Assembly: GCA_963820925.1 (NCBI GenBank)
Contig: CAWGBX010000005.1
Span: forward strand, 208,605-272,604
Direction: 5' to 3'
Origin: an uncultured Acidobacteriota bacterium
GTDB taxonomy: Bacteria > Acidobacteriota > Terriglobia > Terriglobales > Acidobacteriaceae
Length of the DNA: 64,000 bases
Shown: positions 8,605 through 53,100 of the stretch, one piece after another
How positions within the stretch are numbered: position 1 is the first letter of the stretch
How the letters are laid out: every line of letters starts with the position of its first letter
Program-made: the position numbers and the translations under genes
Notes under the pieces: generated by a model
Told to the model about the DNA's origin: nothing
Database searches by the model: none
The model's input: the letters and a program-made list of their open reading frames with translations, nothing else

Positions 8605-8749
8605 TCGAATGGGAAACTGATCATGCTGGACATTTGGGGAAGCGAGGGTATATTGGTTGCCTTTACTGCTTTGGGGAACTCTGACCAGTACAAATTTTGG
8701 CTGGGCTGCACAAACGTGAGCGCCCGCGCCTACATTGGCTGGAAACACT

Positions 8750-9316: not shown

Positions 9317-9336
9317 CCGTTCGTGGCGTTACGAAA

Positions 9337-10669: not shown

Positions 10670-11724
10670 ATACGAAATCAGTCAACGCAATCGCGAATGC
10701 CGTGCTCTACGAGGGGTACATGCTCTACCCCTACCGCCCTTCCTCGGTGAAAAACCGTCAGCGGTTCAACTTCGGCGTGCTTTATCCCAGGTCCTACAGT
10801 GATACACAGACTGGTTCAGATGTCTGCAGCATGCAGACCGAGTGCCTTGTCCAAGGTTCTTTTCTCACTGCAGTCGAGGTAAGAGTGCGTTTCCTCAAGA
10901 TGGTCGCACGTTCGGTTCGCAAGGTAACAGAACCAATGCAATCACCGGATGTCGGTCTCGGTTTCGAGCCCGTTCCGCTTCTCGAGGTCGACGGCAAGGT
11001 ATTCGCGCCCTGGCAGGAGGCAATCGAATGTGAAGTAACCGTACCGGCTTGCAATCTGGATTCGTTGACTGAAGCGCCGCTTGAACGGAAATTCGAATTT
11101 CCCCCGAAAGAGGAAACGGAATTCTTACGCGACGCGACCGACCGCCTCGTAGGCCTGATTGCAAGGAGGCAGGAATCGGTCCAAGGGATAGTTGAGATGG
11201 TGGCGTTGCGCGTTGCCGGCGAACTGTTCAAAGTCCACGTGCGGGTGAAGAACCTCACCTCTTTTGGAGACGACTCCGTCCAGACCAGCCGGGACACAGC
11301 TTTGATGCGATCGCTGGTCTCCACTCACATCCTGCTAGGCGCAGTGGATGGTCGGTTTGTCTCTCTGCTGGAGCCGCCCGACAATCTGAGAGATCTCGCC
11401 ACGAGCTGCCAGAATGTCGGAGCCTGGCCGGTGTTGGTCGGCGCCGAAGGAGAGCAGGACACAATACTTGCCTCACCCATCATTCTCTACGATTACCCGC
11501 AAATTGCGCCGGAAAGCCCCGGCGACTTGTTCGACGGAACGGAGATTGATGAGATTCTCGCGTTGCGCATTCTGACCATGACCGACGACGAGAAGCGCGA
11601 AATGCGTAGCACGGACGAGCGTGCCCGCAAAATGCTCGACAGAACGGAAACTCTGCCGATGGAGCAGCTGTTGAAGCTCCACGGTACGTTGAGGGAATTG
11701 CGTTCGTTGAAGGAGATGCCATGA
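10666..11724 (+). CDS. Hydrogenase-cluster conserved hypothetical protein (352 aa)
   Basis: Start/stop overlaps (ATGA) with both neighbours indicate a coupled operon. Confidence 0.6.
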   Translation: MNTKSVNAIANAVLYEGYMLYPYRPSSVKNRQRFNFGVLYPRSYSDTQTGSDVCSMQTECLVQGSFLTAVEVRVRFLKMVARSVRKVTEPMQSPDVGLGFEPVPLLEVDGKVFAPWQEAIECEVTVPACNLDSLTEAPLERKFEFPPKEETEFLRDATDRLVGLIARRQESVQGIVEMVALRVAGELFKVHVRVKNLTSFGDDSVQTSRDTALMRSLVSTHILLGAVDGRFVSLLEPPDNLRDLATSCQNVGAWPVLVGAEGEQDTILASPIILYDYPQIAPESPGDLFDGTEIDEILALRILTMTDDEKREMRSTDERARKMLDRTETLPMEQLLKLHGTLRELRSLKEMP

Positions 11725-12575
11725 ACGAATGGGAATGGCAGCTCCTCGAAGCCAAAAAACCGGTGGACGACCTGCGTATTTCGGATATCGAGGTGCGACC
11801 CGGCAGCCGGGTTAGATTGTGCCCGCGAGCGGGCGGCGACATCATGGATATTGCGCTCGCGGGTAAGACCGCCGTTATCGAGTCGATCGAACAGGACTAT
11901 GACGGTAAGGTCCACGTTTGCGTTGTCATCGATGAGGATCCGGGGCGGGACATCGGCCTGATGCGACAACCAGGTCACCGTTTCTTCTTCGATCCGGACG
12001 AAGTTGAACCGCTCCCCCGCGGTGACGATGAAGATGCCGAGCGGGCGAAGATGCCCCGGATCCTCATCGCTGGCATTGGAAATATATTTCTCGGGGATGA
12101 CGCTTTTGGTATCGAGGTGGTGCGGCGCTTGTCGACACAAGAGCTGCCACAGAACATTCGAGTGACTGACTTCGGCATCCGGGGTTACGACTTGGCCTAC
12201 GCGCTACTCGATGGATACGACACCACCATCCTGGTTGACGCGTGTCCGCGCGGCGAACCGGCGGGCACGCTATATGTGATTGAACCCGACGTGAGCGAGT
12301 TTGGTGGGCCAGAAGAGCGGCAGAATGCGGTCGAAGCTCATAGCATGAACCCCTTGAATGTGCTGCGTCTCGCGACCTCTATGGGCGGTCCGCTGAAGCG
12401 AGTCCTACTGGTTGGATGTGAGCCGGGAACCCTCGGTCCGGAGGAAGGTCAGATGGGGCTGAGTGAACCGGTCGAGGCTGCCGTCGATGAAGCGGTGAAA
12501 TTGGTGAAATCGCTGATTGCCAAGATACTGAATGGGGATGAATCCGGTACAAAGAACGTAAACGACATTCAATGA
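11721..12575 (+). CDS. Hydrogenase maturation endopeptidase (HupD/HyaD/HycI family) with ~115-aa N-terminal extension of unknown function
   Basis: C-terminal half ILIAGIGNIFLGDDAFGIEVV...ILVDACPRG...HSMNP matches the large-subunit C-terminal processing protease; N-terminal 115 aa has no match I recognise. Confidence 0.75.
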   Translation: MNEWEWQLLEAKKPVDDLRISDIEVRPGSRVRLCPRAGGDIMDIALAGKTAVIESIEQDYDGKVHVCVVIDEDPGRDIGLMRQPGHRFFFDPDEVEPLPRGDDEDAERAKMPRILIAGIGNIFLGDDAFGIEVVRRLSTQELPQNIRVTDFGIRGYDLAYALLDGYDTTILVDACPRGEPAGTLYVIEPDVSEFGGPEERQNAVEAHSMNPLNVLRLATSMGGPLKRVLLVGCEPGTLGPEEGQMGLSEPVEAAVDEAVKLVKSLIAKILNGDESGTKNVNDIQ

Positions 12576-12587
12576 GAGGAGACTGCC

Positions 12588-12800
12588 GTGGCCATGGAAT
12601 TCTCTGAAGGTAGCAACAACAATGGAAGCGACAAGGAAACGTTGTACATGCTCGGTGGAGCAGCCCTTATTCTGTTTGGGACAGGATTGATCCTTTCCAA
12701 CCCAATCGTCCGGCGTTATCTCGGGCAACTGGGAGTCGGCAATCTTGTGCAGGCTGCCTTGCCGGATGTTGATCGGTATCTGAAGCTGCGGGCTATGTGA
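12588..12800 (+). CDS. Small (70 aa) single-pass membrane protein, hypothetical
   Basis: RBS GAGAGGAGA upstream; one hydrophobic segment LYMLGGAALILFGTGLILS. Confidence 0.35.
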   Translation: MAMEFSEGSNNNGSDKETLYMLGGAALILFGTGLILSNPIVRRYLGQLGVGNLVQAALPDVDRYLKLRAM

Positions 12801-12813
12801 CGCCTGGACAATA

Positions 12814-13386
12814 ATGGGATTAACGACACAAACTAGCGTTCATTACGTCACGGACACGAGAGCCAGCCAATTCACGGTGCAGGTATTCTCCGGCGGACTG
12901 CTGTCGGCTTTCGGTCACAGTCCAACCATCGCCATCCGTGACTTCGTGGGCGAGGTAGAAGTGAACCCCGATGATCTCCAGCGCTCTTCTCTCAGAGTTA
13001 CGATCCAGCCATCGTCGTTGACGGTGAGGGACGATATTTCCGACAAGGATCGGCGGGACATGGAGTTGGCCATGCAGCAGGAGATTCTTGAGATATCGGC
13101 CTATCCCGAGATCATTTATGAGTGCTCGAACATCAGCGTCACCAAAGCCGGCGAAGGGCAGTACTCGATCACCCTCAATGGCGAGTTGACTCTGCACGGC
13201 GTTACTCGTTCTCAGATTGTCCCCGCACGACTGGTGCTGGCCGAGGATTCGCTGCGGGCCTTTGGGACCTTTTCACTTTTGCAGACCGATTATCATTTGA
13301 AACTGGCGTCCGTCGCCGGGGGCGCGCTGAAGGTGAAAGACGAATTGAAGTTTTCATTTAACATCCTGGCTCGAAAGAAAGAGTGA
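12814..13386 (+). CDS. YceI-like (polyisoprenoid-binding) domain protein
   Basis: Length 190 aa and pattern QFTVQVFSGG...LTLHGVT...TDYHLK typical of the YceI fold. Confidence 0.55.
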   Translation: MGLTTQTSVHYVTDTRASQFTVQVFSGGLLSAFGHSPTIAIRDFVGEVEVNPDDLQRSSLRVTIQPSSLTVRDDISDKDRRDMELAMQQEILEISAYPEIIYECSNISVTKAGEGQYSITLNGELTLHGVTRSQIVPARLVLAEDSLRAFGTFSLLQTDYHLKLASVAGGALKVKDELKFSFNILARKKE

Positions 13387-13431
13387 ACGCGTGCACAGGA
13401 AGAATCAGCCATCGTGGGGAGAAGAGCTGAC

Positions 13432-13725
13432 ATGTGCTTAGCCATACCGGGGCAAATCGTTGAACTTTTTCCTGACCAACCGAACGCCGCGCTGATTGAC
13501 GTGGTGGGTGTCCGGCGCAAGGTTGATTTGGGACTCCTGCAGGACAACTTGCCGGTGAAGGGAGACTGGGTCCTCATCCATGTTGGGTTTGCCATGAGCA
13601 AGATCAGCGAGGAAGACGCTCTGGACCAGATGCGTACGCTCCGAATGCTGGGAGAGGCCGACGCCGCGATGCAAGAAATTGAAGGTTATGGACTAGACGA
13701 TGCCGCGAACCAGAAAGCGTCGTGA
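13432..13725 (+). CDS. hypC: Hydrogenase maturation factor HypC
   Basis: Starts MCLAIPGQIVE (essential N-terminal Cys2); RBS GGGAGAAGAG; track ORF begins 18 nt upstream at 13414. Confidence 0.85.
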   Translation: MCLAIPGQIVELFPDQPNAALIDVVGVRRKVDLGLLQDNLPVKGDWVLIHVGFAMSKISEEDALDQMRTLRMLGEADAAMQEIEGYGLDDAANQKAS

Positions 13726-13750
13726 AGCATCTTAACGTGGCAAACAAGGA

Positions 13751-14887
13751 TTGGGTATGAAGTTCGTGGACGAGTTTCGCGATCCTGAAGTCATCACCAA
13801 GACGTCGGAAGAAATCCGCCGGCTGGCCGATCCCAATCGCCATTACCGCATCATGGAAGTGTGCGGCGGCCATACGCACGCGATTTACCGCTTTGGCCTG
13901 AAAGATCTGCTTCCGTCGAACATAGAACTTATTCACGGCCCGGGTTGCCCAGTCTGCGTGCTCCCGATGGGACGAATCGACGACGGTCTGTCCATCGCGC
14001 AACAGCCCGACGTTATCTTCGCCGCATTCGGCGACATGATGAGGGTCCCGGGCACGCAAGGCAGTCCTCTCGAGCATAAGGCCCGCGGGATGGATGTTCG
14101 CATCGTCTATTCACCTTCTGACGCGCTCAAGCTTGCTCAAGTAAATCCGGACAAGCACGTCATGTTCTTTGCTATCGGATTTGAGACCACGGCTCCGTCA
14201 ACCGCGCTGACACTGGTGCGAGCGAAGACTCAGGGCATCCACAATTTTTCCGTGTTCTGTAATCACGTAACCATTATTCCGGCAATCCGGGCGATTCTGG
14301 ATTCTCCAGACATGCGTATTGACGCGTTCATCGGGCCCGGGCACGTATCGACCGTGATTGGTTGCCGGCCTTATGAATGGATCGCCAAGAACGAAAACAA
14401 ACCGGTCGCCGTCTCCGGCTTCGAGCCGCTGGATATTCTGCAGTCCATTGTCATGGTTCTGCGTCAACTGAAGGCGGATGAGGCCAGGATCGAAAATCAG
14501 TACAAGCGCGTAGTGCCGTGGGAAGGAAATCGGGCTGCGCTCAGGGCCATGGCAGACGTTTTCGAGTTGCGTCCCTATTTTGAGTGGAGAGGACTCGGCT
14601 TCATCTCTCAGTCAGCCCTGCGCATCCGGGAAACGTATGCAGAGTGGGATGCCGAGCAGCGTTTCCACATTCCCGGAGTGCGGGTGACCGATCCCAAGGC
14701 TGCGCAATGCGGGGAAGTGTTGAAAGGTGTGCTCAAACCTCATCAATGCAAGCTCTTTGGCAAGGAGTGTACTCCTGAACATCCGATTGGTGCACTCATG
14801 GTTTCATCAGAGGGATCATGCGCAGCGTACTTCAACTACGAACACCGCAAAACGGCAATGGTGCCCAGCATAGCGTCGGTGGCCTGA
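13751..14887 (+). CDS. hypD: Hydrogenase maturation factor HypD
   Basis: CGGHTHAIY, GPGCPVCV and C-terminal CPVC-type motifs; 378 aa. Confidence 0.9.
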   Translation: MGMKFVDEFRDPEVITKTSEEIRRLADPNRHYRIMEVCGGHTHAIYRFGLKDLLPSNIELIHGPGCPVCVLPMGRIDDGLSIAQQPDVIFAAFGDMMRVPGTQGSPLEHKARGMDVRIVYSPSDALKLAQVNPDKHVMFFAIGFETTAPSTALTLVRAKTQGIHNFSVFCNHVTIIPAIRAILDSPDMRIDAFIGPGHVSTVIGCRPYEWIAKNENKPVAVSGFEPLDILQSIVMVLRQLKADEARIENQYKRVVPWEGNRAALRAMADVFELRPYFEWRGLGFISQSALRIRETYAEWDAEQRFHIPGVRVTDPKAAQCGEVLKGVLKPHQCKLFGKECTPEHPIGALMVSSEGSCAAYFNYEHRKTAMVPSIASVA

Positions 14888-14961
14888 ACGCTGCCGAGGC
14901 CGATGGCTCGGCCATCGACAACAACGCACCGAAGGTGCACTTCCGCGAGCCGCAAATCGAG

Positions 14962-15954
14962 ATGGCTCACGGAGCCGGAGGTAAGGCCAGCCGCCGGCTC
15001 GTAGAAGGTCTTTTTGCTCCGCTTCTTTTTGTGCCGTCCTCAGAACCGCTGGGAGATGCGGCCCATCTGGATTTCAACGGTACCCGGATCGCCATTACCA
15101 CTGATAGTTTCGTAGTCAAGCCCCTGAGTTTTCCTGGCGGCTCGATCGGAGAACTCGCAGTGAACGGAACCGTGAACGATCTGGCGGTTTCGGGAGCGAG
15201 AGCGGAAGCCATGGTAGTCACTTATGTGCTCGAAGCTGGGCTGCCGACGCCTGTGCTCGAGGCCGAAGTACGCGCAATGGGGAACGCAGCACGCAACGCC
15301 GGTGTCGCGATCGCGGGTGGCGACACAAAAGTTGTCGAGCACGGCAAAGCCGATTCTATGTACATCACGACGACCGGAATTGGGCGACCTCTGCATTGGT
15401 TGAATATCGATCCGAGATCCGTTCGTCCGGGCGACAGGATTCTGCTCTCCGGCCCAATCGGCGATCACGGTATCACTATTCTTCTGGCGCGTGGGGAACT
15501 CGATCTTGAAGCTGACCTTCGTTCTGACACGCGCTCCGTACTTCCTCTGGTTGAAGCTCTGGTGAAGGCGGCAGGTCCCGGCATCCGCTGGATGCGCGAC
15601 CCGACGCGCGGCGGTGTGGCCACTTCCCTAAACGAACTTGTTCGCGACTGCGGGTGTGGAATTGTGCTCCTGGAGGAAATGATTCCAATACATGATGCTG
15701 TTCGTGGCGCTTGCGAGTTGTTGGGGCTCGATCCATTGCATATTGCAAATGAAGGCCAATTCCTCGCCGTAGTGGCCCCGGAATACGCGGACGCCGCCCT
15801 CAACGCCTTGACTCTTGCTCCTGGTGGCGAGGATGCGCAGATGATTGGGGAGGTGCGTGAACAGCCGTCCGGCGCGGTCTTGGTCACGACACGTTACGGT
15901 GGGAGCAGGATTATAGATATGCTGGTCGGCGATCCGCTCCCGCGCATTTGTTAG
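14962..15954 (+). CDS. hypE: Hydrogenase maturation factor HypE (carbamoyl dehydratase)
   Basis: MAHGAGGKAS N-terminus and C-terminal ...PRIC; track ORF starts at 14818 overlapping hypD; ATG at 14962 gives canonical 330-aa HypE. Confidence 0.85.
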   Translation: MAHGAGGKASRRLVEGLFAPLLFVPSSEPLGDAAHLDFNGTRIAITTDSFVVKPLSFPGGSIGELAVNGTVNDLAVSGARAEAMVVTYVLEAGLPTPVLEAEVRAMGNAARNAGVAIAGGDTKVVEHGKADSMYITTTGIGRPLHWLNIDPRSVRPGDRILLSGPIGDHGITILLARGELDLEADLRSDTRSVLPLVEALVKAAGPGIRWMRDPTRGGVATSLNELVRDCGCGIVLLEEMIPIHDAVRGACELLGLDPLHIANEGQFLAVVAPEYADAALNALTLAPGGEDAQMIGEVREQPSGAVLVTTRYGGSRIIDMLVGDPLPRIC

Positions 15955-15961
15955 AAACGCA

Positions 15962-17164
15962 TTGGTTAGGAATATTGCGATGGCGACAGTTTGTGGACTG
16001 GCAGCTCAAGTGGAAGAGCGCCTGCTCACCCGGAACCAGATTGTCGAGGAGTTTTTCTCTCGCGAGGCATTCCGCCTCGCTGAAGCTTGCCGCTCCATGT
16101 CCGAGCGTTTCCTGCAGGGAGGGCGGCTGCTTGCCTTTGGACGTGGCCCCTACGCAACCGACGCCCAACATGTCTCCGTCGAATTTGTTCATCCTGTGAT
16201 CGTGGGAAAGCGCGCTCTGCCTGCCCTGGATATTTCCATCCAATTCCGGCCCTGGCTGGAAGCAATACTCCATCCTGAAGATATTGTTATGGGATTTGGC
16301 CCTCCAGAGGGGGACGAGGAGATTCGATCCGCGGTCAACTTTGCCCATGCGCGAAACGCACTGACCTTCGCTCTTCCCGGCGTTGAAGGGTCGTACGCGG
16401 TCGAGGCTTTCACTCAGGATCCATTCATTCACCAGGAAATGATTGAGATCCTTTACCACACGCTGTGGGAAAGTGTGCATGTCTTCCTGGAACATCGCGA
16501 ACTGGGCCATGACGTAGGAGAAGCCGGATTTCTGTACCCATTTCTTGGTCGGGAAAGGCAGGAGACCGACGTTTTGGTGTCTGAGGTAGCGGCCTCGATC
16601 CGGATGAAGGTGCAAGATGATTCAAGGCTGCGTGCACAAGTGGCGCGTGAGCAGGCTGAACAGATCAGCAGCGCGGCCGTTGCGATTCACGAACGTCTGT
16701 CGAAAGGCGGCAAGCTCGTCCTCTTCGGCAACGGCGGGTCGGCGACGGACGCGAACGATTGGGCCATCGACTGCGTGCTTCCTCCGTCGGGCTATCGTCC
16801 TGTTCCAGCAGTCTCGCTCTCGCTCGAGCCAGCGAATATCAGCGCGATCGCGAACGATGTCGGTACAGACGTCATTTTCCTTCGCCAACTCATCGCACAG
16901 GCCCGCCCGGACGACGTTGCCATCGGAATTTCCACCAGCGGCGGATCACGCAACATCATCATGGCGCTGGAAGAAGCGCGTAAGCGAAATATGCTGACCG
17001 TCGCTTTGCTGGGTTATGACGGCGGCGAGATCAAGCGTCGCCGGTTGGCGGACTTTCCCATTGTTGTGCAATGCGATTACATACCGCGCATCCAGGAAGT
17101 GCAAGCTTCGATCTACCACATTATCCGCGAAACCTTGGAGGTATTACGCCGTGGCGAAGCTTGA
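15962..17164 (+). CDS. Tandem SIS-domain protein (GmhA/DiaA-like phosphosugar-binding fold) embedded in the hyp cluster
   Basis: Two SIS-like blocks: LLAFGRGPYATDAQHVSVEF and KLVLFGNGGSATDANDWAIDC ... ISTSGGSRNII. Confidence 0.55.
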   Translation: MVRNIAMATVCGLAAQVEERLLTRNQIVEEFFSREAFRLAEACRSMSERFLQGGRLLAFGRGPYATDAQHVSVEFVHPVIVGKRALPALDISIQFRPWLEAILHPEDIVMGFGPPEGDEEIRSAVNFAHARNALTFALPGVEGSYAVEAFTQDPFIHQEMIEILYHTLWESVHVFLEHRELGHDVGEAGFLYPFLGRERQETDVLVSEVAASIRMKVQDDSRLRAQVAREQAEQISSAAVAIHERLSKGGKLVLFGNGGSATDANDWAIDCVLPPSGYRPVPAVSLSLEPANISAIANDVGTDVIFLRQLIAQARPDDVAIGISTSGGSRNIIMALEEARKRNMLTVALLGYDGGEIKRRRLADFPIVVQCDYIPRIQEVQASIYHIIRETLEVLRRGEA

Positions 17165-20748: not shown

Positions 20749-23700
20749 TCAGTCGGCGGCCATACCTTGAGCTTCCTGCTCGACCTGCCCGCGAAGCTGC
20801 TCTTCCAAGGCGGCCAATTGCGCCTCGATCTCCTCGTTTGCCTTTCGCTTCTTGATGACCTCCTCGCGGTAGCGGCGCAGGAAGTAATCGATTGTCTCCA
20901 CGCGGATCCTTATCGAGCCAGTGGGCTTGTTCTCGTCCAGATCTTTGAAGCAGAAGTAAGGCGTGCCCGACTGCTCGATGATGCCTTCGACTACTCCGTA
21001 GATGGGCGCGTCGTGGCCACACTTGAAACTCGAGACTTCCAGAGCGACCAGGTTCGGGTGGCGGGCGGTGAACTTCGCCGCCCAGACCTTGTGGTTGGTA
21101 CTGCAAGAGTATGAATTCTTCCAGGCATCGGTAATATCGAGCGGGTGGCTGATAACTCCCGCGCGAACCTCATCACCGAACAGGCGTTCCAGCAAATCTT
21201 CATCGAGTGGCAGGGTGTTCTGCGAGAAGATGGGATAGCCGAGCTTCTGGAACTCTTCCATGATTTCGTGATTCAGTCCCGGATCATGATGATAAGGGCG
21301 GCCCAGCATCACGATGCCGATGCGATCTTCCCGCTCCAACTGGTCGAGCACCTGGCGCGCGCGTCCGCGAATACTGGCCTCGTAGTCGGCCAGCGCCTTG
21401 TAGCCAACTTCGACCGCGCGATCGTTCTCTTCCAGGGACAATCCCAGGATCGGCTGCCAGGCCTGCAGCATTTGATGGGCGAACAGCTTGCGGTCGGCGA
21501 AGTTCAGGATGGGATCGACGTACTTCACATTGTGCTCAGCAAAAACGTCGTTTTCCTTGGTGAACGCTGCTTTCACGGTCTCGGGGGTCGCTGTCACAGT
21601 CGGGCAAGCGTTCGCGCCAACAATCTTCACCAGCGGAGATGTCAGCACGTCGTACATGGGGAAGAAAATGACGTCCAGGGGCTTTTTCCGATGCTTTTCC
21701 TGGATCAGGTTATACACGTGCGAAATACCGATCTTCGCAGGGAAGCAGGGGTCAATCGCGCCGCGGCTGGCGCCAGCACGGTACAGTTCCGAACTGGTGT
21801 AGTCCGAGTAAATGATGTTCTCCGGCTGCACGCCCAAGCTCTCAAGATATCCGTTGAAGAGCGGCGCATAGGTGTAGATGTTCAGCAGGCGCGGAATGCC
21901 GACGCGAAGCTTCTTGCGATTCTCCATGAGAGGCACGCGCTCTTTTGCCGACTTGTTCCAGAATTTCGTTACCGGGACGGGATCGGCCACGCTCTTCGGG
22001 TTAACCGGCCGGAAGACTTCACGGGCAGCAAAGTCCACAAAGTTTGGGTATTTGTCTTTGATCTGATCGATACCCGCTTTGATGTCCTTCATATCGTTGA
22101 CATCTTCGACCAGGCCTTTTTCGCAGGTTGCGATGATCAATCGCTGCTCGCCATGCATCAACGGAACTTTCGTGACCTTCTGAATCGGAACGAAGCTCAG
22201 GTCATCCTTGGGAACAGTTCGGATGTCAATGAACGTGCGCAAGCAATTGTTCTTGCAGAAATTGCAGCGCGTGCTCTCGTTGCGCGTGGTGCGGTATTCG
22301 ATTTTCCGCACGGCCTCCAGTCCGACAAACGTGGTCTGCTGGCCATTGCGCCACAAGCGGACAGACTCAACCGCAGCCCCGATGGCTCCGGACTCGCCGC
22401 AGAATTCGTGGACAATGATCTCCGGTTTCTTGCCAGCCGCACGGAAGCTGTTCTGGATGAAATCGACTTCTGCCTTGACTACTGCCATGTTGTTCTGAGT
22501 CCCACCCTGCAGGACGAAGCGCGTGCCCAAGGCCGCGAGATTAGGAATGCTGGCCACGTACAAGAACACATTCTTCGGAAGCACAGCCGCCAGGCCTGCC
22601 AGAATTTCCTCCGCCCGCCAGCCCTGACGCTGGAAATTTACGATGTCCGATTGCATGAAAACGGCACAGCCGTAGCCGAAAACCGGCATCGATTGAGCTG
22701 AGAAAGCCAGATCGGCGTATTGTTCCACACTCAGCCCAAAGCCTTCAGCGGTCGACTGCAAGAAATAGCCATTTCCCGCCGAGCATTGCGTATTGAGTTT
22801 GAAGTCTTTGACCCGACCGTTATGCAGGATGATGATTTTGATATCCTGCCCGCCAACGTCGACGATGACGTGGGGATCCTCGTAAAACTTGAGGGCTGAT
22901 TCCGTGTGAGCGACAGTCTCGACCAAGCGCGACGTCCGCATGCAAGACGTCTTTCAGAATATCCTTTGCATAGCCCGTAGTGGCGACTCCCAAGACTTCC
23001 AGCTTCGCCTTTTGCGCTTCCACCTGGCCGCGCAAGTTCTCGAACATTTCAATCGTGTCCTGGATCGGGTTCCCGTTCGAGAGTTGGTAGGACTTACAGA
23101 GAATGTCGCCATTCTCGTCGAGCAGCACGGCTTTGGTGGAAGTGGAGCCACCATCGATGCCGATAAATCCGCCAATCGTCTTGTGGGCGGAGAAGGTCGC
23201 CGGAACAAACTTCTTGCGGCGGTACTCGACCTTGAAGTCGTCCAACTCTTTTTCGCCGGCGGTCAGACCCTTGGCGCCAGCCTTGGCCTTTTCTTCCTGG
23301 CGTCCAAAGTCGATGTAGTGCAGGAGCTTTTCGTATCCCTGATAGCAGCCAACGCAGTCTTCTTCGCTCTTGCCGAATTCAATCGCACCCAGGGCGGCGA
23401 AGTACTGCGCGTTTTGCGGGACTTTGATGAGTTCGTCCGGTTTTGCGCCATCAGGAATCGTGACTTTGCGCTCTTGCCACATGCGAGGGATATTCGCCTG
23501 CCAGGCTTCGCGCATGCCCTTGATGAAGCTGTTCGGACCACCCAGCAACAAAACGTGCGGTCGCAGGGTGTGGCCGCGCGTCAAAACGCTGAGATTCTGC
23601 AGCACGATCGCCTCAAATAGCGAAGCCATCAACTCATCTGGTGGCGTTCCCACTTTCTGCAGACTGTTGATGTCGGTCTCGGCGAACACGCCGCACTTGC

Positions 23701-24313
23701 CGGCGACCTTGTGCAGCTTGATCCCGTGGTAGCCCTGCAGGGCAAGCTCGGCAACTGGAATCTTCAGCTTGGCGTTGATCTTGTCGATGACGGCGCCAGT
23801 GCCGCCTGCGCACTTATCATTCATCGACGGAATTTTCTTCTTGCGCCCCGTCTCATCGTCGTCCTTAAACACGATGATCTTCGCGTCCTGTCCACCTAAC
23901 TCGATCACCGAATACACTTCGGGGTGCATCTTCTCGACCGCCAGCGAAACCGCCGTGACTTCCTGCACGAACTTGGCGCCAATTTGATCGGCGATCCCTC
24001 CGCCACCGGAGCCGGTCATGAACATCCGCGTGTTGTGGCGATTGATGCCTACTTCCTTTTCGATGCGGCGCAGAAACTCCAGCGTCTTCTCTGGTTGCTT
24101 GGTTTCATGGCGCTGGTAGTCTTGCCACAAAGCCTTGTCCGTGGCTGCGTCCACCACAACGGCTTTGACCGTGGTCGAGCCAACATCGAGTCCGACCATG
24201 AATTCGGTGTGGTGATCGTGCGGCCGTTGTGCGGGCGCGGGAGCTATCTGAAATAGTTCTGGCTTTGGTTGGTGGCCAAGATGGTCGTGCATCATCTCTC
24301 CAGTCAGTGGCAA
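20749..24313 (-). pseudogene. Fused CoA-substrate-specific enzyme activase (2x BadF/BadG/BcrA/BcrD ATPase) + 2-hydroxyacyl-CoA dehydratase (HgdB/D-component-like) domain; reading frame broken by 1-nt indel near 22923
   Basis: Track ORFs 22820-24313 and 20749-22941 overlap in different frames; the second ATPase domain (IGIDGGSTSTKAVLL...HADVA | LVETVAHTESAL...VDVGGQDIKII) runs across the junction. Removing one G from ttGGtc restores ADVALVETVAHTE. Confidence 0.7.
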
Positions 24314-30521: not shown

Positions 30522-30986
30522 TCAACTCACTTTGGTGCGGCACGTGTGCAGCAGTTCGGTAAGCGCCCGAAGCCGTTCCCGTCCCAGGTGGCCCAGTTGC
30601 TTGCGATGGGTCTCTTGCACCGGCTCATCCAGCCGGCCCAGGAGCTTAAGACCCTCCGGCGCGATCCGGGCCATCACCATTCGCCGATCCTTGGTTTCGC
30701 GGCAGCGTGAAATCAGCCCGCGCTTTTCCAACCGGTCGAGCAGCCGCGTGACGTCCGGATCCCGCGTAATCATACGGCTGGCTATCTCGCCACACGGAAG
30801 GCCGCCTGGTGAGCCGCGCAGGATTCGGAGTACGTTATATTGCGTCGAGGAGAGGTCCCCAGTCTTGAGCACCTGAACCAGCCCGCGGGAGAGCACGTCA
30901 GTGGTGCGAAGCAGGTCCAAAAACGCGGCCTCCTCGGAACCGCCGACGCGTCGCCCACCTTTATCTGACTCGACCTTTTCCTTCAT
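30522..30986 (-). CDS. MarR family transcriptional regulator
   Basis: Winged-helix region VLRILRGSPGGLPCGEIASRMITRDPDVTRLLDRLEKRGLISR. Confidence 0.8.
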   Translation of the reverse strand: MKEKVESDKGGRRVGGSEEAAFLDLLRTTDVLSRGLVQVLKTGDLSSTQYNVLRILRGSPGGLPCGEIASRMITRDPDVTRLLDRLEKRGLISRCRETKDRRMVMARIAPEGLKLLGRLDEPVQETHRKQLGHLGRERLRALTELLHTCRTKVS

Positions 30987-31114
30987 CTGGATGAAATATT
31001 ATCCGTTTTAACGACCATTGTCAAGACGGACGTTCTCCCTTTCCCGCACTTTATAGGTGTGCGTAAGATTTTCGAGCTGAGGATAGGAAACACGAGAAGA
31101 GTTTGAGTCTCGCG

Positions 31115-31934
31115 TCAGCTCGTCTTCGCCTTCCCGGGAGGAGCCAACGCGACGGCAGCCTCGGTGGTGAGCAGGAGGAAAGTGAACGTCTCCTGCAGGT
31201 ACAGGCGGACAGCCGTATCGGTGTGGCTGAGGTAGCCGATGGAGACGTCCTGGCCGATGTGCAGGTCGAAATCGCCGCCACGAGTGGTCAGCACGAAAGC
31301 GCCGGCAATGGCGGGCGCCCAGATGATTTGATCGTTGACCAGCCGCTTGACGTGCTCCAGCACCGGGTATCCGTGGTCGCTGGTCTCGGCGAGTGCGGTG
31401 TAAGCGTCGGCGCCGAGCAGCACCGAGTAGGGGCCGTTGACACCGACGAGACGTAAGCTGGCTCAAGCCTTGCGCAATGGCTTCCGGATACTCGCGCACG
31501 TCGGCGGGGAGCGTCATGATTGGATTGCTGGTTCCCTGACGGATACCCCCGATGCCGGCGGCGGCATAGCCCTCAAATATGGCGCCGTCCTCGGCAAAGG
31601 CGATCTGTCGCGCGGCGTCCTTCGCCGGTTGCCAGTCTGAGTCGTTCGCGCCACGATCGACATCGTCGATCGCCTGGCGATCCAGCTCGAACGGAACGCG
31701 CAGCTCGACCAGCGCCTTCACCTCGCGCTGTCTTGCGACGATGCCCTTCGCCGGGGCCGCGATCGTCCGCAGGTGGCCGGTGCCGACGGCAGAAAGGCCG
31801 CTGCCGGCCGGCCCCTTCACGTCGACGACGCGCCGTCCGGCAAGATAGCGCTTGAGCGTGCGCGATGTTTCCTCTTCGATCTGAGCCCATGCCGAATCGG
31901 AAATGGGGGCAAGTTCGCGATGGAGGTTATTCAT
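31115..31934 (-). pseudogene. Family 1 encapsulin shell protein (linocin M18-like), frame broken by 1-nt indel near 31454-31456
   Basis: MNNLHRELAPISDSAWAQIEEETSRTLKRYLAGRRVVDV... matches the Mycobacterium Cfp29-type encapsulin from memory; C-terminal half (LLGADAYTALAETSDHGYPVLEHVKRLV...GGDFDLHIGQD...LYLQETFTF) is in another frame. Deleting one A restores ...AQGLSQLRLVGVNGPYSVLLGADAYT. Confidence 0.8.
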
Positions 31935-33008
31935 GTCGGATGTCTCCTTTGAGGGAACCGATGCCGAGCGAACCCTCGCGCACCGATGCGATGGATGGAG
32001 TGGGATCAGCCGGCGCCGCGCGAGGGATCCGCTCCGTCGGTCAGCGGTCTCCAGAAACGTAGCCGATGGCACGAAGAACAGGTTCCCGGTGACAGCGCGG
32101 CTGAAGTCGAGCAGACGGTCGTAGTTGCCGGGCGGGCGACCGATGAACATGTTCTCGAGCATCTGCTCGATGGTGCGCGGCGAACGGCTGTAGCCGATGA
32201 AATAGGTGCCAAATTCACCTTGCGCAGGACGCCCGAAGGGCATGTTGTCGCGCAGGATCTTGATCTCTTTCCCGTTCTCGACGATGGTCGTGAGCGCGTT
32301 GTGCGCCGAGGTTGGCTTGACGGAATCGTCCAATTCGATGTCGGACAGCTTGGTGCGGCCGATGATGCGTTCTTGCGCCTCGGTGGAGAGCGCATTCCAT
32401 GCCTCAAGGTCGTGGAGATATTTCTGCACGATGACGTAGCTGCCGCGCGGCAAAACGCAGCGTCCTCGTCGCCGATGAGCACGGCATCGATCGCCGCCGC
32501 CCCCCTGGGGTTTTCCGTCCCGTCGACGAAGCCCATGAGATCGCGGTCGTCGAAGTAACGGAAGCCGTGCACTTCGTCCACCGGCGAAACGGCATTTCCG
32601 ATGCGCGCCATGATCTGCGTGGCCAGCTCGAAGCAAAGATCCATGCGCTTCGGCGCGGATGTGGAACAGCAAGTCGCCTGGCGTCGAGACCGCGTGGCGC
32701 GCTCCGGCGCGAATCTCCCGGAATGGATGCAGTTCTGCCGGTCGGGGCGGCCCGAAGAGGCGGTCCCACGCGTCGGACCCAAACCCCATGACGCAGGAAA
32801 GTCCCCCTTCAAGATCGCGAAATTCCACCGCGCGCACCAGCGCGGCGAGGTCTCCGCAGAACGAGCGCACGGTGGCGCGATCGTCAACGCCTGGCTTGAG
32901 CGTCACGACCAGGAAGATCGCGGCGCGGGTAAGCGGCGCGGCTATCGGCTGAGCGAGGGCAGGCAAGCCACCTGCCGCTGGGGGCGCGCTCATCGGACTC
33001 GGCTCCAT
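31927..33008 (-). pseudogene. DyP-type (dye-decolorizing) peroxidase encapsulin cargo with C-terminal targeting peptide; 3 frame disruptions
   Basis: N-terminal AIFLVVTLKPG...LLFHIRAE in frame 1, middle LCFELATQIMARIGNAVSPVDEVHGFRYFDDRDLMGFVDGTENP in frame 2, then GSYVIVQKYLHDLEAWNAL...GEFGTYFIGYSR...NLFFVPSATFL in frame 1. A third frame ends ...EGSLGIGSLKGDIRHE* with the TAA overlapping the encapsulin ATG (cATGAATAA). Confidence 0.8.
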
Positions 33009-33339
33009 CGGGTGTCATCCTGGTGGCGTGCGAAAGTTGGGACCGCAAGCTTACCACCGCTTGCCGGCGAACGTCCAACCGCCGACGGGCTTGACTGTTG
33101 TTTGGAATGGGTTATTCGCGAAGGATCAATTCTGGAGCGCGGTTGTGACGTGTCGACTCTTACGCGAATTGCGGGACACTCGAATATCAGCATCTCTCAA
33201 CGTTACGTTCATCCCTCCAATGCTGTGCTAAATGCGCTTTCACCTTTAAGTGGACACAATTCTGGGCACATTGCCGAAAATGCGATTCCTGCAAGGTCTG
33301 GGGAATTGCGGCTAAGCACCGCTAATTATGAGCATTAGA

Positions 33340-35977: not shown

Positions 35978-36984
35978 CTAATCATCCGGCGTGGATTTCT
36001 CCTGCCGTGGCGGTTCAGCCTTGGCAGACCTCGACCGACTACGAAAACGTGCGGGGGGAATTTCAAACTCGCGTTTGAATGCCCGGTTAAAAGCGGCTTC
36101 GGACTCATAGCCGACTTCCGATCCGATCTGTGCCACTGAGTAACTGGTCGAGACCAGCATCTGCGCTCCCAGTTGGAGACGCCAGCGCGTCAGGTACGCC
36201 ATTGGAGGTTCGTTGAGGTAGTGCCGGAAGCGCTCGGCCAGTACCGATCGTGATACCCCTGCTTCTTTGGCCAAGGAAGCGATGGTCCACGGATGTGCCG
36301 GGTTCCGGTGCATCAGCGCCAGCGACTTTCCGACCTCCGAATCGCGGGCGCCGGCCAGCCAACCGGTTTGTTCAGGTGGAAGGTGCGCAATGTAGGTCCG
36401 CAGTGTTTCAACAAACAAAACCTCCGATAGTTTTGCCAAGACTGCTTCTCCGCCGGCGCGGGATGCGATCGGTCTCGTTCACCGAAAACCGTATTGAATT
36501 CTCCAGCCATCTGCCCGAGGCATCGTTGCGAATGCTGACCTTGAACACTGAAGGTAGGCCGCTGAGAAAAACCTGGCTGAGTCGTGGCTCACAGGCCATA
36601 AAGCCACAGACAAACTTGGTCATTTCCCCTCCGCCGCCCATGCGTGACAGCTTCAATCCCTGGGCGACAATTCGCGCTATTTCCTTCGCCATGTCCACAG
36701 ACTTCGTTGCCGGGCCGTTTTCGAGGATGTGCGCGTCACCGTGGGGAAAGATCACGATGTCGCCGGTGTCAAGCGCAATGCGCTCGCCATCCACCAGACG
36801 GGCAGAGGCGTCGTCCCTGCGTGAGTAAGTGGTAAACGATAACGTGTCTCGCACCCGGCGCCACATAGGGCGCAATCGTGGCAGAAGCCGGTGAACAAAA
36901 ACTCCACGGGGAGGAGAATTCTCCGTTATAGAACATGGCCCCTTGGAGTTTCACGACCTTCAGCACTTCGGAAAGCACATCCAT
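35978..36984 (-). pseudogene. AraC-family regulator (N-terminal cupin + C-terminal HTH_AraC) split over three frames
   Basis: MDVLSEVLKVVKLQGAMFY... (frame x), ...LVDGERIALDTGDIVIFPHGDAHIL...GGGEMTKFVCGF... (frame y), LAKLSEVLFVETLRTYIAHLPPEQTGWLAGARD...HTH (frame z); the order matches a known AraC subfamily. Confidence 0.6.
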
Positions 36985-47120: not shown

Positions 47121-50100
47121 ATGGCGCGGGGACAGCCAAATGTGCAGCAATCCGAATGTCAGGCCTCACCGCGAAATCTATTCATCGCGTTTGGTAGTGC
47201 GACGTGCGTTTTGTTTGCGCTGCTGCTCACTGGATGCGCTGCTTTCCAAAGCGGAGACCACACCGACAAGAATAACTATGCGCTGAAGATCACGCCCGCG
47301 ACCCCGGTTGTGACGGTGGGGCGCACTATTCATCTCACCGCAAGCAGTCCGTGGGGCGGTGGCGCGCACTGGTCTGTACTTCCAGCCTCTCTAGGAGCCA
47401 TCGATCAAAACGGCAACTTCACCGCCTCCAACACGCCCGGCTCCGGCACGATCATCGCGATGTGGGACCGGGACGTTCGCTATACCGCCACTGCAACAAC
47501 GACGGTTGTCGCGGTGCCCCAGGCAAGCATCACGGTGGTAGCACCGGTTGGCAACACGCCGGGAAACGCATCCGTTCCTCCCAGCCTGATTCCGCCTACG
47601 TGTGGACCATCCAGGGCGGCACCATCCTTTCCGGCCAGGGCACGTCGCAGATTCAATTTGCCGATTCCGGCCCCGGTGCCACTCTAGTGAACTGTACCGT
47701 GACGGACGGCGCCGGCGACACCACTACCAATTCGGCCACGGTTCCTGCCACAATCGAGTACAACCCAACTTCTTACACTCTTATTCGCGGCGCCGACATT
47801 GGGAACATTGCGCCCACACGTGCTGACGCTAACGCCCTGATGTGGCGAGTATCGCCTGATTTGCCTGTGGGCCTCGTGCTCAATGCAAGTACGGGCGTGA
47901 TCAGCGGCGCTCCCGCATCGCCGGCGCCAGCTGCCGCTTACACGGTGACAGCCAGCAACACAGGCGGTGACAGGTCACGCCGTGGCGCTCGCGATTACCG
48001 TGATCGATTCGGCGCCAATCTTTTCCTACATCCCCAATGCCTACATCGGGACGGTTAACGTTCCGGTCACACCCATATCGCCGACGCTGACCCACGGCAC
48101 GGTGACTTTGTGGAAAATCAGTCCTTCTTTGCCCGCCGGCCTGGTGTTTGATTCCGCGACGGGCCAGGTCTCAGGCGCGTCTCGCGTCCTCAGTCCGAAT
48201 ACGACATACACGGTGACAGCGAGCAACAATTGGGGATCGGTCACTGCGGAACCGCTGTCCATTGACGTCATCGACGTTCCTCCGGCGATTCACTATGCTC
48301 CATCTGCCTTCACTTTGACGAGGGGGACCGCTGTATCGCCGATAGTTCCCGCCAACTCTGGTGGTCCAGCAACTTCCTGGTCGATCGCGCCACCACTCAC
48401 CGCAGGGTTGACCTTCAACCTAGCGACCGGCTCGATCTCTGGAAATCCAAGCACGATCACGGCCGCAGTTTCGTATTCCGTCACGGCAACGAACACCGGG
48501 GGAACAAGCCCTCCAACCAGCCTCAATATCAACGTGGTTGACATCGTTCCCGCGATTCAGTATCCCTCGGCAAACTTTGCCATCACCATCAACTCAGCAT
48601 TGCTACCATTCTTGCCCACAAACTCTGGCGGGCCGGCGACGAGTTGGAGCATTCAGCCGGCGATTCCCTCCGGCCTCAGCTTTGATCCCGCAACCGGAGC
48701 CATCAGCGGAGTCCCGGATACAGCAACCCCGGCTGCTCTCTACATCGTCACGGCGACGAACACTGGCGGCACGAGCCAGCCCTTTACTATCACATTGGCC
48801 GTCGTAGTTCGGCCGACTTCGTCGATCAGCGCGTCTTCGACCAATCCGCTGAGGGGAGCAACGGTCGATCTGACGCCAACGTTTGCCAACGCCGTCTCGG
48901 CCACGGTGGGGACAACGCAAGGCGGCAGCGACATCTCCAGTTCGCCGACGACCGGAACAGCAATTCCAACCGCCGCCATTACCGCAACCAAAACCTACTG
49001 GCTGCGGGCGACGAACGGCGCGGGAGATTTCGTAGACGGTTCCGTTACGGTGACGCCGCAGACCGTTACAATTAATGGCATCAGCCCGGCTGCACCTACC
49101 CGCACAGTCAACAGCACGAGTAGCTTCACCACAACGGCCACAGGCGGAGTAACCAACGGCATCTCATGGTCCGCCAACGCCGGCTCCATGAACGCCGCCA
49201 CCGGAGCGTGGACTGCTCCCGGCAGCGCGGGCAATGTCATCATCACCGCCACCTCGAATGATGACAGCGGCAAAACCGCCACGACCCTGGTGAACGTCGT
49301 GGCAGCCGCGAGTGCATCGATCAGCGCCTCCTCGACCAATCCGCTCTATGGCGCGACGATCAACCTGACACCGACATTCAGCAACGCGGTCTCTGCCTCG
49401 GTCGGAACGACGCTGGGCGGCAATGACATCTCCAGTTCGCCCACAAGCGGCACCGCAATCCCCACCGCAGCCATCACCTCACCCCGGACTTACTGGCTGC
49501 GCGCGACCAATGCTGCCGGCGACTACATTGACAGCTCCGTCACAGTGACGCCAAAGACAGTCGTGGTGGGCGCAATTACTCCAGGCGCGCCCACACGCAC
49601 CGTCAACAGCTCGACCACCTTCAGCGCCAGCGCCACGGACGGTGTGACCAATAGCGTTACCTGGTCAGCCAGCGCGGGCACCATGAATGCCAGCACCGGG
49701 GTCTGGACTGCTCCCGCCACTGCGGGCAATGTCACCATCACGGCGACATCGAGTGATGACGGCAGCAAAACAGCGACGACCACCGCAAGCGTGGTCCTGG
49801 CCAGCACAGCCTCGATCACCGCCTCGTCAACTAGTCCGCCCCACGGCGCAACGGTTAATCTGGCGCCAACGTTTGGCAACGCAGTTTCAGCTTCGGTAGG
49901 GACAACGCAGGGCGGAAGCGACATTTCCGCGTCCCCGACCAGCGGAACGCAGATCCCGACCTCAGCCATCGTATCCGTCAAAACCTACTGGCTACGCGCC
50001 ACCAACGCTGCCGGAGACTACACCGACAGTTCCGTCACGGTCACACCGCAGACGGTCGTAGTGAATGCCATCAGCCCGGCCGCGCCCACACGCACCGTCG

Positions 50101-53100
50101 ACAGCGCAACCACCTTCACAACAACGGCCACAGGCGGAGTAACCAACGGCATCGCATGGTCCGCCACCGCTGGGACCATGAACGCTGCCACCGGAGCCTG
50201 GACTGCTCCCGGCAGCGCCGGCAATGTGACCATCACCGCCACCTCGAACGACGATAGCAGCAAGAACGCGACGACCCTAGTCAACGTCGTGGCAGCCGCG
50301 AGTGCGTCGATCACAGCTTCCTCCACCAATCCCTTGTATGGCGCGGCGATTAGCCTGACGCCGACATTCGGCAACGCAGTCTCGGCCTCGGTCGGTACCA
50401 CGCAAGGCAGTAGCGACATCTCCAGTTCACCCACGAGCGGCACGCCGATCCCTACTGCGGCGATCACGTCATTTAGGATCTACTGGCTGCGGGCGACAAA
50501 CGCGGCCGGGGACCATGCCGACAGCTCCGTCTCTGTTACGCCGCAGACCGTGGTGGTAAACGCAATTACTCCAGCCGCGCCCACACGCACCGTCAACAGC
50601 TCAACCACTTTCGCCACCACCGCCACGGGCGGCGTGACCAATGCCGTTACGTGGTCGGCAAGTGCAGGATCGATGAACGCCAGCACCGGCGACTGGACCG
50701 CTCCCGCCGCCGGCAATGTCACCATCACGGCAACATCGAGTGATGACAGCGGCAAAACGGCGACGACCACGGTTAGCGTGGTCCTGGCCAGCACCGCCTC
50801 GATCACTGCCTCGTCAACTGGCCCGCTCTATGGCGCAACGGTCAACCTCACTCCGACTTTCTCCAATGCTGTCTCAGCCGCAGTAGGCACTACTCAGGGC
50901 GGCGGCAATATCTCCAGTTCGCCTACGACCGGAACAGCAATTCCAACCTCCGCCATTACCACAACCAAAACCTATTGGCTGCGGGCTACGAACGCTGCCG
51001 GGGATTACGCCGACAGCTCCGTTACGGTCACACCGCAGACGGTCGTTGTGAATGGCATCAGCCCGGCCTCTCCCACGAAGACGGTCAACAGCTTGACTAC
51101 CTTCACCACCACGGCCACAGGCGGCGTGACCAATAACATCACGTGGTCAGCGAGCGCGGGAACGATGAACGCCGGTACCGGCGCCTGGACCGCTCCCGCC
51201 ACAGCCGGCAACGTCACCATTACCGCCACGTCGGCCGACGACAACACGAAGTCAGCCACGACATCAGCGACCGTCGTCCTGGCTCCGACTGCCTCACTTG
51301 CCGCGTCCTCGGCAAATCCGCTCTACGGGGCAACGATCACCCTCACGCCAACATTTGCCAACGCCGTCTCGGCATCGGTCGGAACAACGCAGGGCGACAA
51401 CGACATCTCCGGGTCACCCACCAGCGGCGCCGCAATCCCTACAGCAGCAATCACGTCAGTCAAGACCTACTGGCTGCGAGCCACGAACGCGGCCGGGGAT
51501 CACGCCGACAGCTCCGTCGTGGTTACGCCGCAGACCGTGGTGGTCAACGCAGTCGGTCCTTCGGCGCCCACACGCACCGTCAACACGACGACCACCTTCT
51601 CCACCACCGCCATGGGCGGAGTGACCAACGGCATCAACTGGTCGGCCAACGCAGGCACTATGAATGCCAGCACCGGAACCTGGACTGCTCCTGCCACGGC
51701 CGGCAATGTGACCATCACCGCAACATCGCAGGACAATCCTGCAAAGACGGCGACGACCACTGTAACTGTTGTTCTGGCCAGTACCGCTTCTATTTCGGCA
51801 TCCTCAACTACGCCTCTGCGGGGCGCGACGGTCAATCTGACGCCAACCTTTGCGAACGCAGTCTCGGCCTCGGTGGGCACCACGCAGGGCGGAAACGATA
51901 TCTCGAACTCACCCACCAGTGGAACACAGATTACGACTGCGGCCATTACCACAACCAAGACTTACTGGCTACGCGCTACCAATGCCGCGGGAGACTTCGT
52001 AGATGGTTCCGTCACGGTGACGCCGCAAACGGTGGCAGTAAATGCCATCATCCCGGCCTCGCCCACGAAGACGGTCAACACAGTGACAACCTTCACTACC
52101 ACGGCCACCGGGGGCGTAACCAATGGCATCACATGGTCGGCGAGCGCGGGAGCGATGAACGCCAGTACCGGCGCGTGGACTGCTCCCGCCATCGCTGGCA
52201 ACGTCACCATCACTGCCACCGCGAATGACGACAACAGCAAAACGGTCACAACTACGGTCACCGTGGTCCTGGCCGCTACCGCGTCGATCAACGCGTCGAC
52301 CACGACGCCGCTGTACGGCGCGACGGTCAACCTGACTCCGACTTTCTCCAATTCAGTCTCGGCCGCAGTGGGCACCGCGCAGGGCGGCAGCGATGTCTCG
52401 AACTCGCCCACGAGTGGAACGCAAATTACAACTGCAGCCCTCACTGCCTCAACCACTTTCTGGCTGCGCGCCACCAACGCGGCGGGAGACTTTGCGGACA
52501 ATTCTGTCGCGGTGGTGCCGAAGACGGTCACCATTGGCGCCATCACCAAGAGCGCCAGCAACGTCAGCGTAGGGTACACGGCGACGGCGAAAGCCACCGT
52601 TTCCAATGCCGTGGACACAACGGTTGACTGGACAGCCACCTGCGGTTCGTTCAGCCTAACCAATACGGCAAGCGGTGTGAATACAACATGGACAGCGCCG
52701 GGCAGCCCCGGATCCTGCACGCTGACCGCAAAAAGTCATGCCAAGCCGTCTGTCAGCATCACTACCACCATCACGGTGATTGCGCTTCCGATTGCCACCA
52801 GCCTTACGCCGAGCACGACCAGCCCGCTCTACGGCGCTACCGTCAGCCTTCTTCCTCTGTTCAACGCATTCGCGGGCGGAAACGGCAGTGTCAACAACGG
52901 TGTGGGAACGGTCACCAACAACGTTGCCAAATCGTCACTGGCAATCACCACGGCGACGACGTTCACTCTGACGGTCACCAACGCTGGGGGACAGCAGGCA
53001 ACGATAGATTCTGCGCTGGTCACGCCGCAAACAGTCGTGGTAAATCCGCTCAGCCCGGCTTCGCCCACCCGCACCGTGAACAGTTTGACCACCTTCACTA

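Follow-up and report, generated by a model that had tools for sequence, protein, structure and literature searches.

Among encapsulins, those of family 1 loaded with DyP are the most common type and the best studied. In the known systems, a peptide at the C terminus of the DyP-type peroxidase docks on the inner face of an HK97-fold shell during assembly, enclosing the peroxidase. Reference systems include the Linocin M18/DyP pair of Brevibacterium linens, the Cfp29/DyP pairs of Mycobacterium tuberculosis and M. smegmatis, and the DyP encapsulins of Klebsiella pneumoniae and enterobacteria, with PDB entries 8u4z/8u50, 7boj/7bok and 9bkx as structural references. Here we describe an operon of this type in the window, the whole stretch of 64,000 nucleotides that was analysed, which belongs to a soil Acidobacteriota MAG lineage, a host that differs from those of the known DyP encapsulins. 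The system itself is already known, and after correction of the reading frames nothing of substance separates the window operon from its characterised counterparts. Its sole unusual property, the frame disruption, is very probably not real. The biological importance of the locus is small, for solved systems include close homologues of it, and its value is that of a methodological warning: strongly conserved operons of many co-occurring taxa can acquire clustered frameshifts in a metagenome consensus, at sites where both alleles are kept.

The operon and its products

The operon genes, their neighbours and the inserted bases are outlined in Table 1. The original prediction of a DyP gene upstream and a family 1 encapsulin gene downstream was confirmed by translation, by NCBIfam and Pfam profiles and by structure-sequence alignments. 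With five inserted bases removed, the DyP gene translates into a protein of 358 aa, which scores 298.7 bits against the NCBIfam profile Dyp_perox_fam (TIGR01413; cut-off 100.5) and lies above the cut-offs of both Pfam DyP domains, with 115.8 bits for Dyp_perox_N (PF04261) and 200.8 bits for Dyp_perox_C (PF20628). Alignment with the encapsulin-associated DyP of K. pneumoniae (8u4z) gives an E value of 1.3e-138 and reaches through GSLNIGSLK. The corrected C terminus, ...REGSLGIGSLKGDIRHE, lines up with GSLNIGSLKKE of this encapsulated enzyme, and in both proteins a linker is followed by a C-terminal targeting motif of the GSLxIGSLK type. Of the haem-binding and catalytic features of DyP-type peroxidases, namely a GxxDG motif with the distal Asp, a distal Arg and a proximal His, the GxxDG motif can be read from the sequence as GFVDG. 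The alignment to 8u4z also preserves KPTSAHN and ILRDNMPFG, as whole stretches. Besides its host, the window operon differs from the known DyP encapsulins in a short lineage-specific N-terminal extension of the DyP (MEPSPMSAPPAAGG...), in the DyP tail that follows the targeting peptide (DIRHE) and in the six extra bases of the sequence as deposited.

Table 1 Features of the DyP-encapsulin locus, its neighbours and the inserted bases (window coordinates)
Feature	Position	Strand	Evidence or sequence context
DyP-type (B-class, encapsulin-associated) peroxidase gene	31927..33008	(-)	translation before and after correction; TIGR01413; Pfam; 8u4z alignment
Family 1 encapsulin (Linocin_M18/Cfp29) shell gene	31115..31934	(-)	NF041155; Linocin_M18; alignments to solved shells
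Insertion 1 (DyP)	32648	(-)	+1 G on coding strand: GCCGAA[G]CGC
Insertions 2 and 3 (DyP)	32445..32451	(-)	+1 G at 32451, +1 C at 32445: TTTT[G]CCGCG[C]GGC
Insertion 4 (DyP)	32045	(-)	+1 G: GAGACC[G]CTGACC
Insertion 5 (DyP)	32021	(-)	+1 G: CCCTC[G]CGCGG
Insertion 6 (shell)	31459	(-)	+1 A: AGCC[A]GCTTA
MarR-family regulator	30522..30986	(-)	PF01047, PF12802; 100% identical in L002; immediately downstream of operon
Tyrosine recombinase C-terminus remnant (…GHSNISISQRYVHPS…)	33028..33338	(+)	PF00589, below gathering score; upstream of DyP

The shell gene, with its one inserted base removed, encodes 272 aa, which score 357.9 bits against encap_f1 (NF041155; cut-off 100) over profile positions 1-261 of 261, and 332.8 bits against Linocin_M18 (PF04454). 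Alignments to the solved shells 9i8d, 7boj, 9bkx and 8u50 run end to end, with E values of 5e-112 to 3e-106; for 9i8d and the mycobacterial Cfp29 structures the range is 5e-112 to 2.5e-109, and the protein is equal in length to Cfp29-type shells (E ~1e-110). From these end-to-end alignments, an HK97-type fold and icosahedral assembly can be predicted for the shell protein. DyP and shell genes share a strand, with DyP directly upstream as in the known DyP encapsulins, and this arrangement of cargo next to shell is identical on three intact contigs described below (L002, L086 and L087). The end of DyP overlaps the beginning of the shell gene by 8 nt (ATGAATAA) and not by the 4 nt first proposed. 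Judged by its sequence, the locus is a classical DyP-loaded family 1 encapsulin operon, its matches being far above the curated cut-offs and not a product of chance. In the intact system, the C-terminal peptide of DyP (SLGIGSLKG...) would, by analogy with the known encapsulins, dock the cargo inside the HK97-fold shell. The recombinase remnant upstream is a weak match to PF00589 (E 0.0011; 19.2 bits vs a cut-off of 27.1) and is identical in L002.

As sequenced, both genes are frame-broken. Three-frame translation of positions 31000-33100 places the DyP N terminus, MEPSPMSAPP..., at 33008 and reveals frame switches near 32648, 32450 and 32030. The last ~30 residues of DyP, ...PSIASVREGSLGIGSLKGDIRHE*, fall in the third frame, which is the only one in which its C-terminal ...SVREGSLGIGSLKGDIRHE* can be read; the targeting peptide ...GSLGIGSLKGDIRHE is encoded at ~31927-31975 on the minus strand, and in the uncorrected sequence the cargo-loading peptide SLGIGSLKGDIRHE is out of frame relative to the DyP start. 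The shell protein starts with MNNLHRELAPISDSAW... at 31934, switches frame near 31459 and ends at 31115, with residues 1 to ~159 alone sharing one frame. These translations bear out the earlier observation that the targeting peptide is found in a third frame only and that both genes are broken, and the statement that no intact compartment can be encoded by the sequence as given is literally true. By chance, the uncorrected sequence also has one 666-codon frame without a stop that spans both genes (31008-33008).

Intact relatives

Protein searches with the hand-joined sequences gave thousands of close homologues, at most 95% identical and mostly from soil Acidobacteriota metagenomes. The best DyP match (P0121) is encoded on L002, a 4168-bp JGI short-read contig on which the gene order is that of the window, namely a 259-aa membrane protein, DyP, shell and MarR, and on which both operon genes are intact. 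L002 and the window have zero mismatches in ~0.8 kb downstream of the operon, including the MarR gene, and in the ~1 kb immediately upstream. Two JGI short-read contigs from other samples, L086 and L087, also carry an intact operon, with 6 differences from L002 over ~1850 positions; their upstream context departs from ~33363 onward, with the operon allele unchanged. The intact operon is found, then, on short-read contigs of three other metagenomes, one of them with flanks identical to those of the window, and the window differs at 77 columns from all three contigs alike.

For comparison, 39 relatives were aligned, drawn from the best 80 GTDB species-representative loci and from database contigs. 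The species-representative relatives have at most 88% protein identity to the window, and each of the best 80 has a full-length DyP match. Across the 30 closest aligned soil Acidobacteriota relatives, the operon has a nucleotide identity of 84% or more. The corrected proteins, looked up exactly as 2 variants of the shell and as 8 of DyP that cover the possible alleles at the insertion sites, are all absent from a 15-billion-protein collection. This absence of a natural, intact allele of the window type is negative evidence that fits a mosaic consensus. The 259-aa, 426-aa and 594-aa neighbour proteins of the window were also looked up for contigs of the same species, with no record returned, and a lineage-specific 24-mer upstream of DyP had 0 matches in the metagenome contig collection. 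As this 24-mer is present in L002, the collection does not contain these samples.

Six insertions at polymorphic sites

Nucleotide alignment of the window with L002, to which it is ~96% identical across the operon, reveals six single-base insertions and zero deletions. The original prediction had counted four disruptions, three in DyP and one in the shell gene; the alignment raises this to five in DyP and one in the shell gene. Two close pairs of insertions (32451 with 32445, and 32045 with 32021) each resemble one net shift, which explains the lower count. Repeat runs would be the expected sites of replication slippage, and also of the errors classically made by Nanopore, 454 or Ion Torrent sequencing. 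Homopolymer lengthening was sought at the six insertion sites and found at none of them (0/6), and homopolymer error was rejected as the cause.

Each of the six inserted bases is an allele found in at least 25% of the 39 relatives at the neighbouring column; L002 differs there and mostly has a rare base. For instance, at insertion 1 the L002 codon is GAA, and a G occupies the third codon position in 36 of the 39 relatives (AAG in most of the displayed relatives with G, GAG in few); GAA merged with AAG or GAG gives GAAG. Insertions 2 and 3 together give the sequence that results from joining TCCGCGGGC, the allele of L002, to GCCGGCGGC, that of the relatives. Here L002 reads TTT-TCC-GCG-GGC, most relatives read TTT-GCC-GGC-GGC, and the window sequence TTTTGCCGCGCGGC combines both exactly; the T is private to L002 (0/39 relatives), and the G is present in 39/39. 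At insertion 4, L002 has CTG and 36 of 39 relatives have G at the first codon position (GTG, or GTT/GTC/GTA, among those displayed), so that CTG and GTG yield GCTG. Insertion 5 combines the TCC of L002 with TCG into TCGC, the G being found in 11 of 39 relatives, and insertion 6 combines the CGC of L002 with the relatives' CAG into CAGC (A in 25/39).

In a simulation, a random non-homopolymer insertion matched an adjacent-column allele of at least 25% of relatives with a probability of 0.092. The probability of six in six by chance is ~6e-7, or ~7e-6 if the close pair is counted once. We know of no mutational process that would be expected to insert the alternative allele of a neighbouring polymorphic site; a consensus drawn from a mixture of two alleles would be expected to do so. 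The six frame breaks are most likely consensus errors of a metagenome assembly from mixed alleles, as judged from assembled sequences. The underlying locus is most likely an ordinary functional two-gene operon of a soil Acidobacteriota (Terriglobales-like) bacterium. A decayed nanocompartment is unsupported, and the comparative evidence favours the very outcome that had been named as refuting it, an assembly or consensus error in an ordinary operon.

Substitutions and the origin of the second allele

Within the genes, there are 73 substitutions relative to L002, 53 of which are at codon position 3, with 50 synonymous and 23 non-synonymous. This mostly synonymous pattern indicates alleles whose function purifying selection has maintained, and it bears directly on genuine pseudogenisation, in which the population would carry the six +1 insertions and the DyP nanocompartment would be in the process of being lost. 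Such decay would account for the broken frames of both genes as given. The integrase remnant that adjoins the operon and the further split genes of the window would also fit, as would the variable context of the operon among relatives, which is what a dispensable mobile accessory locus might display. However, six independent insertions would have had to arise with zero deletions, zero nonsense mutations and no excess of non-synonymous change, at sites none of which (0/6) is a slippage-prone run, and with every inserted base matching the other allele of the polymorphic site beside it. In place of the marks of a pseudogene, the locus has substitutions of the purifying type, insertions that join two alleles and near-identical natural copies that are intact in three samples. 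We therefore regard pseudogenisation as very unlikely.

The substitutions can also reveal the source of the second allele. Among the 83 columns at which the window and L002 differ, the window carries the relatives' majority base at 65 and L002 at 14 (binomial p 5e-9). Each of the 39 relatives is nearer to the window than it is to L002, and the window is 93.8% identical to the consensus vs 91.2% for L002. Sister alleles should be equidistant from outgroups, and the pull of the window toward the average fits cross-mapped or collapsed reads of other taxa that carry the operon.

Under a putative model of mixed-allele consensus error, the conserved ~2-kb operon would have collapsed in the assembly graph or would have attracted the reads of other taxa during polishing. 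The mixed alleles may belong to co-occurring strains, or to other taxa whose reads were cross-mapped or were collapsed into a single edge of the assembly graph. At most strain-specific positions, the consensus would have taken the majority, that is, the common base; at six positions the resident and the common allele would both have been retained, resulting in +1 insertions. This model would explain the clustering of the errors, their overlap with the patch that diverges from L002 and the clean flanks, and the identity of the flanks fits cross-mapping because the flanks are lineage-specific. We know of no documented reason for a mixed pile-up to yield insertions only, as in 6/6 cases here.

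Two other readings can be weighed against the same data. The first is a collapse of two diverged paralogous copies of the operon in one genome, or of strains of the same species, with no cross-mapping from other taxa. This collapse predicts the same two-allele signature and the same identical flanks, and the L086/L087 allele, which sits in another upstream context, indicates more than one natural junction. On the other hand, the second allele resembles an average of many taxa and not one haplotype, as any single relative shares at most 67 of the 83 window-specific bases, and a natural window-type allele was not found by protein searches or among the 10 exact variants; we consider this reading highly improbable. 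It is a sub-variant of the mixed-allele artefact and leaves the biological conclusion unchanged. The second reading takes the insertions as real, with a population that has identical flanks and that inactivated cargo and shell after recombinational import of a divergent allele. Little credence can be given to this reading. If true, such a recent inactivation would provide a snapshot of encapsulin loss in nature.

Split genes elsewhere and in other assemblies

Consensus error from mixed alleles can also be viewed against the rest of the window, in which at least three other genes are split. An AraC-type regulator is divided near 36420 into a Cupin_6 ORF (36408-36875) and an overlapping HTH_18 ORF (35978-36439), and a CoA-enzyme activase is broken near 22880, inside its second BcrAD_BadFG domain (22820-24313 and 20749-22941). 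A giant Ig-like/Kelch-like repeat lipoprotein is spread over five overlapping ORFs (47121-62639), with breaks at ~47600, ~48000, ~54500 and ~54870 and with repeat similarity that spans the frame changes. The density of breaks is 6 in 1.9 kb for the operon vs roughly 6 in the other 62 kb of the window. Two regions of the window, 15-17 kb and 49-54 kb, have short ORFs on the minus strand that were considered as broken genes with in-frame stops and rejected, since they lie antisense to intact genes of the plus strand.

The window probably derives from a long-read (Flye/Medaka-type) metagenome assembly, as suggested by, among other things, naming and the origin of its relatives. Microflora Danica MAGs make up the majority of the best 80 relatives. 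Textbook Nanopore errors are homopolymer or methylation-motif errors; those in the window differ in that they sit at polymorphic positions and retain the two alleles, a pattern that favours a mixed-population consensus over basecalling bias. The Microflora Danica long-read MAGs were built from Nanopore reads only, with metaFlye and one Medaka round (PMC12313526). The window resembles such Nanopore-only assemblies in that single-base indels split genes, and private +1 insertions are found in the operon of two relatives, L003 and L012. In L003, there are five private non-homopolymer +1 insertions in DyP, 4/5 of them beside polymorphic positions and with an inserted base that some relatives carry. 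The shell gene of L012, a Microflora Danica long-read MAG, has a single private non-homopolymer +1 insertion, and L005 has private single-base deletions in the operon. Among the 40 aligned sequences, frame-shifting private indels in conserved coding regions are confined to Flye-style or Microflora Danica long-read contigs. The remaining frame-shifting private indels, in short- and long-read MAGs, fall at the outermost alignment columns or within the DyP linker, which varies in length and aligns ambiguously.

The DyP-encapsulin operon is frame-broken on three Flye-style database contigs; in the alignment with relatives, one has private +1 insertions and another has single-base deletions. Three top database matches (P0001, P0009 and P0010), from ENA contigs named contig_N, are apparent 'fusion' proteins that join Dyp_perox_C to Linocin_M18. 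Together with the frame that is open through both genes of the window, these proteins could be taken to mean that the frame changes are used biologically, through programmed ribosomal frameshifting or a real DyP-encapsulin fusion. However, the open frame contains long out-of-frame nonsense and lacks the last 40% of the shell as well as the targeting peptide, slippery motifs are found at 0/6 sites, and DyP is full length in the best 80/80 relatives. The 'fusion' contigs have their frame breaks at differing places and carry fragmented neighbour genes, including MutL, MetH, TPP-enzyme or activase-family (BcrAD_BadFG) calls. A fusion or a programmed frameshift was rejected on the content of the open frame, the absence of slippery motifs and the intact relatives, and it is close to untenable as an explanation. 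Rather, both-allele errors can create false pseudogenes and false fusions, as exemplified by these three proteins, which then reach protein databases.

Frame breaks elsewhere in the window

Several genes outside the DyP-encapsulin operon are also divided between reading frames (see table). The Cupin_6 and HTH_18 portions of an AraC-family regulator lie on separate ORFs that overlap by 32 nt, a split that is probably another single-base frame error. The two ORFs of a CoA-substrate-specific enzyme activase overlap by 122 nt (22820-22941), and the break falls inside the second ATPase domain. The largest case is a giant surface protein, in which a lipoprotein-type signal is followed by He_PIG/PKD-like Ig repeats and then by Kelch-like repeats. 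Similarity between its repeats persists past the changes of frame, and about four more frameshifts are therefore likely in this gene, a region where GC skew is strongly negative. Also present on the plus strand is a hydrogenase-maturation neighbourhood (8735-17164), in which every listed gene seems intact.

Features of the window outside the DyP and shell coding sequences, with the putative ribosome-binding site
Feature	Position	Strand	Remarks
NifU-like domain protein	8735-9316	plus	
DUF5947	9337-10026	plus	
HypD	13751-14887	plus	
HypE-like AIRS/AIRS_C protein	14818-15954	plus	
SIS-domain protein	15962-17164	plus	
CoA-substrate-specific enzyme activase	20749-24313	minus	Two ORFs; two BcrAD_BadFG domains and DUF2229
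Shine-Dalgarno-like AAGGAG	31940-31952	minus	9 nt upstream of shell start codon
Tyrosine recombinase C-terminus (GHSNISISQRYVHPS)	33028-33338	plus	Short remnant; weak Pfam match, E 0.0011
AraC-family regulator	35978-36875	minus	Two ORFs in different frames
HTH_18 ORF of regulator	35978-36439	minus	
Cupin_6 ORF of regulator	36408-36875	minus	
Giant surface protein	47121-62639	plus	~5000 aa
Its five overlapping ORFs	47121-47687, 47351-48058, 47967-54572, 54424-54891, 54885-62639	plus	

Artefactual proteins in public collections

Artefactual versions of the operon are present in public protein collections, among them the database matches P0001, P0009, P0010, P0002, P0013, P0029, P0065 and P0132. 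One class consists of apparent Dyp_perox_C+Linocin_M18 'fusions', and another of shell proteins extended at the N terminus by out-of-frame read-through of DyP. In P0132, a DyP of 433 aa, an internal block is duplicated, such that GREKLSDIELDDS... is present twice.

Organization, flank and distribution of the operon

In the targeting peptide (SLKGD), the codons for Lys-Gly-Asp supply the AAGGAG that precedes the shell gene; the tag's conserved end is thus encoded by the same bases as the shell gene's putative ribosome-binding site. Upstream of DyP, the recombinase remnant is positioned between this gene and a 259-aa membrane protein, and an identical copy is found in L002, a syntenic metagenome contig. 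In two further metagenome contigs (L086 and L087), homology to the window is lost upstream of about 33363; the operon is thus located at a strain-variable junction.

Among Acidobacteriota relatives, the genomic context of the operon is not constant. DyP genes with 78-82% protein identity to that of the window also occur at four loci (L034, L037, L040 and L077) from metagenome-assembled genomes labelled as Alphaproteobacteria, Xanthobacteraceae and Methylocella; their presence there is due either to binning contamination or to the operon having been transferred horizontally. The G+C content of the operon is slightly higher than that of its neighbourhood (0.60 vs 0.57).
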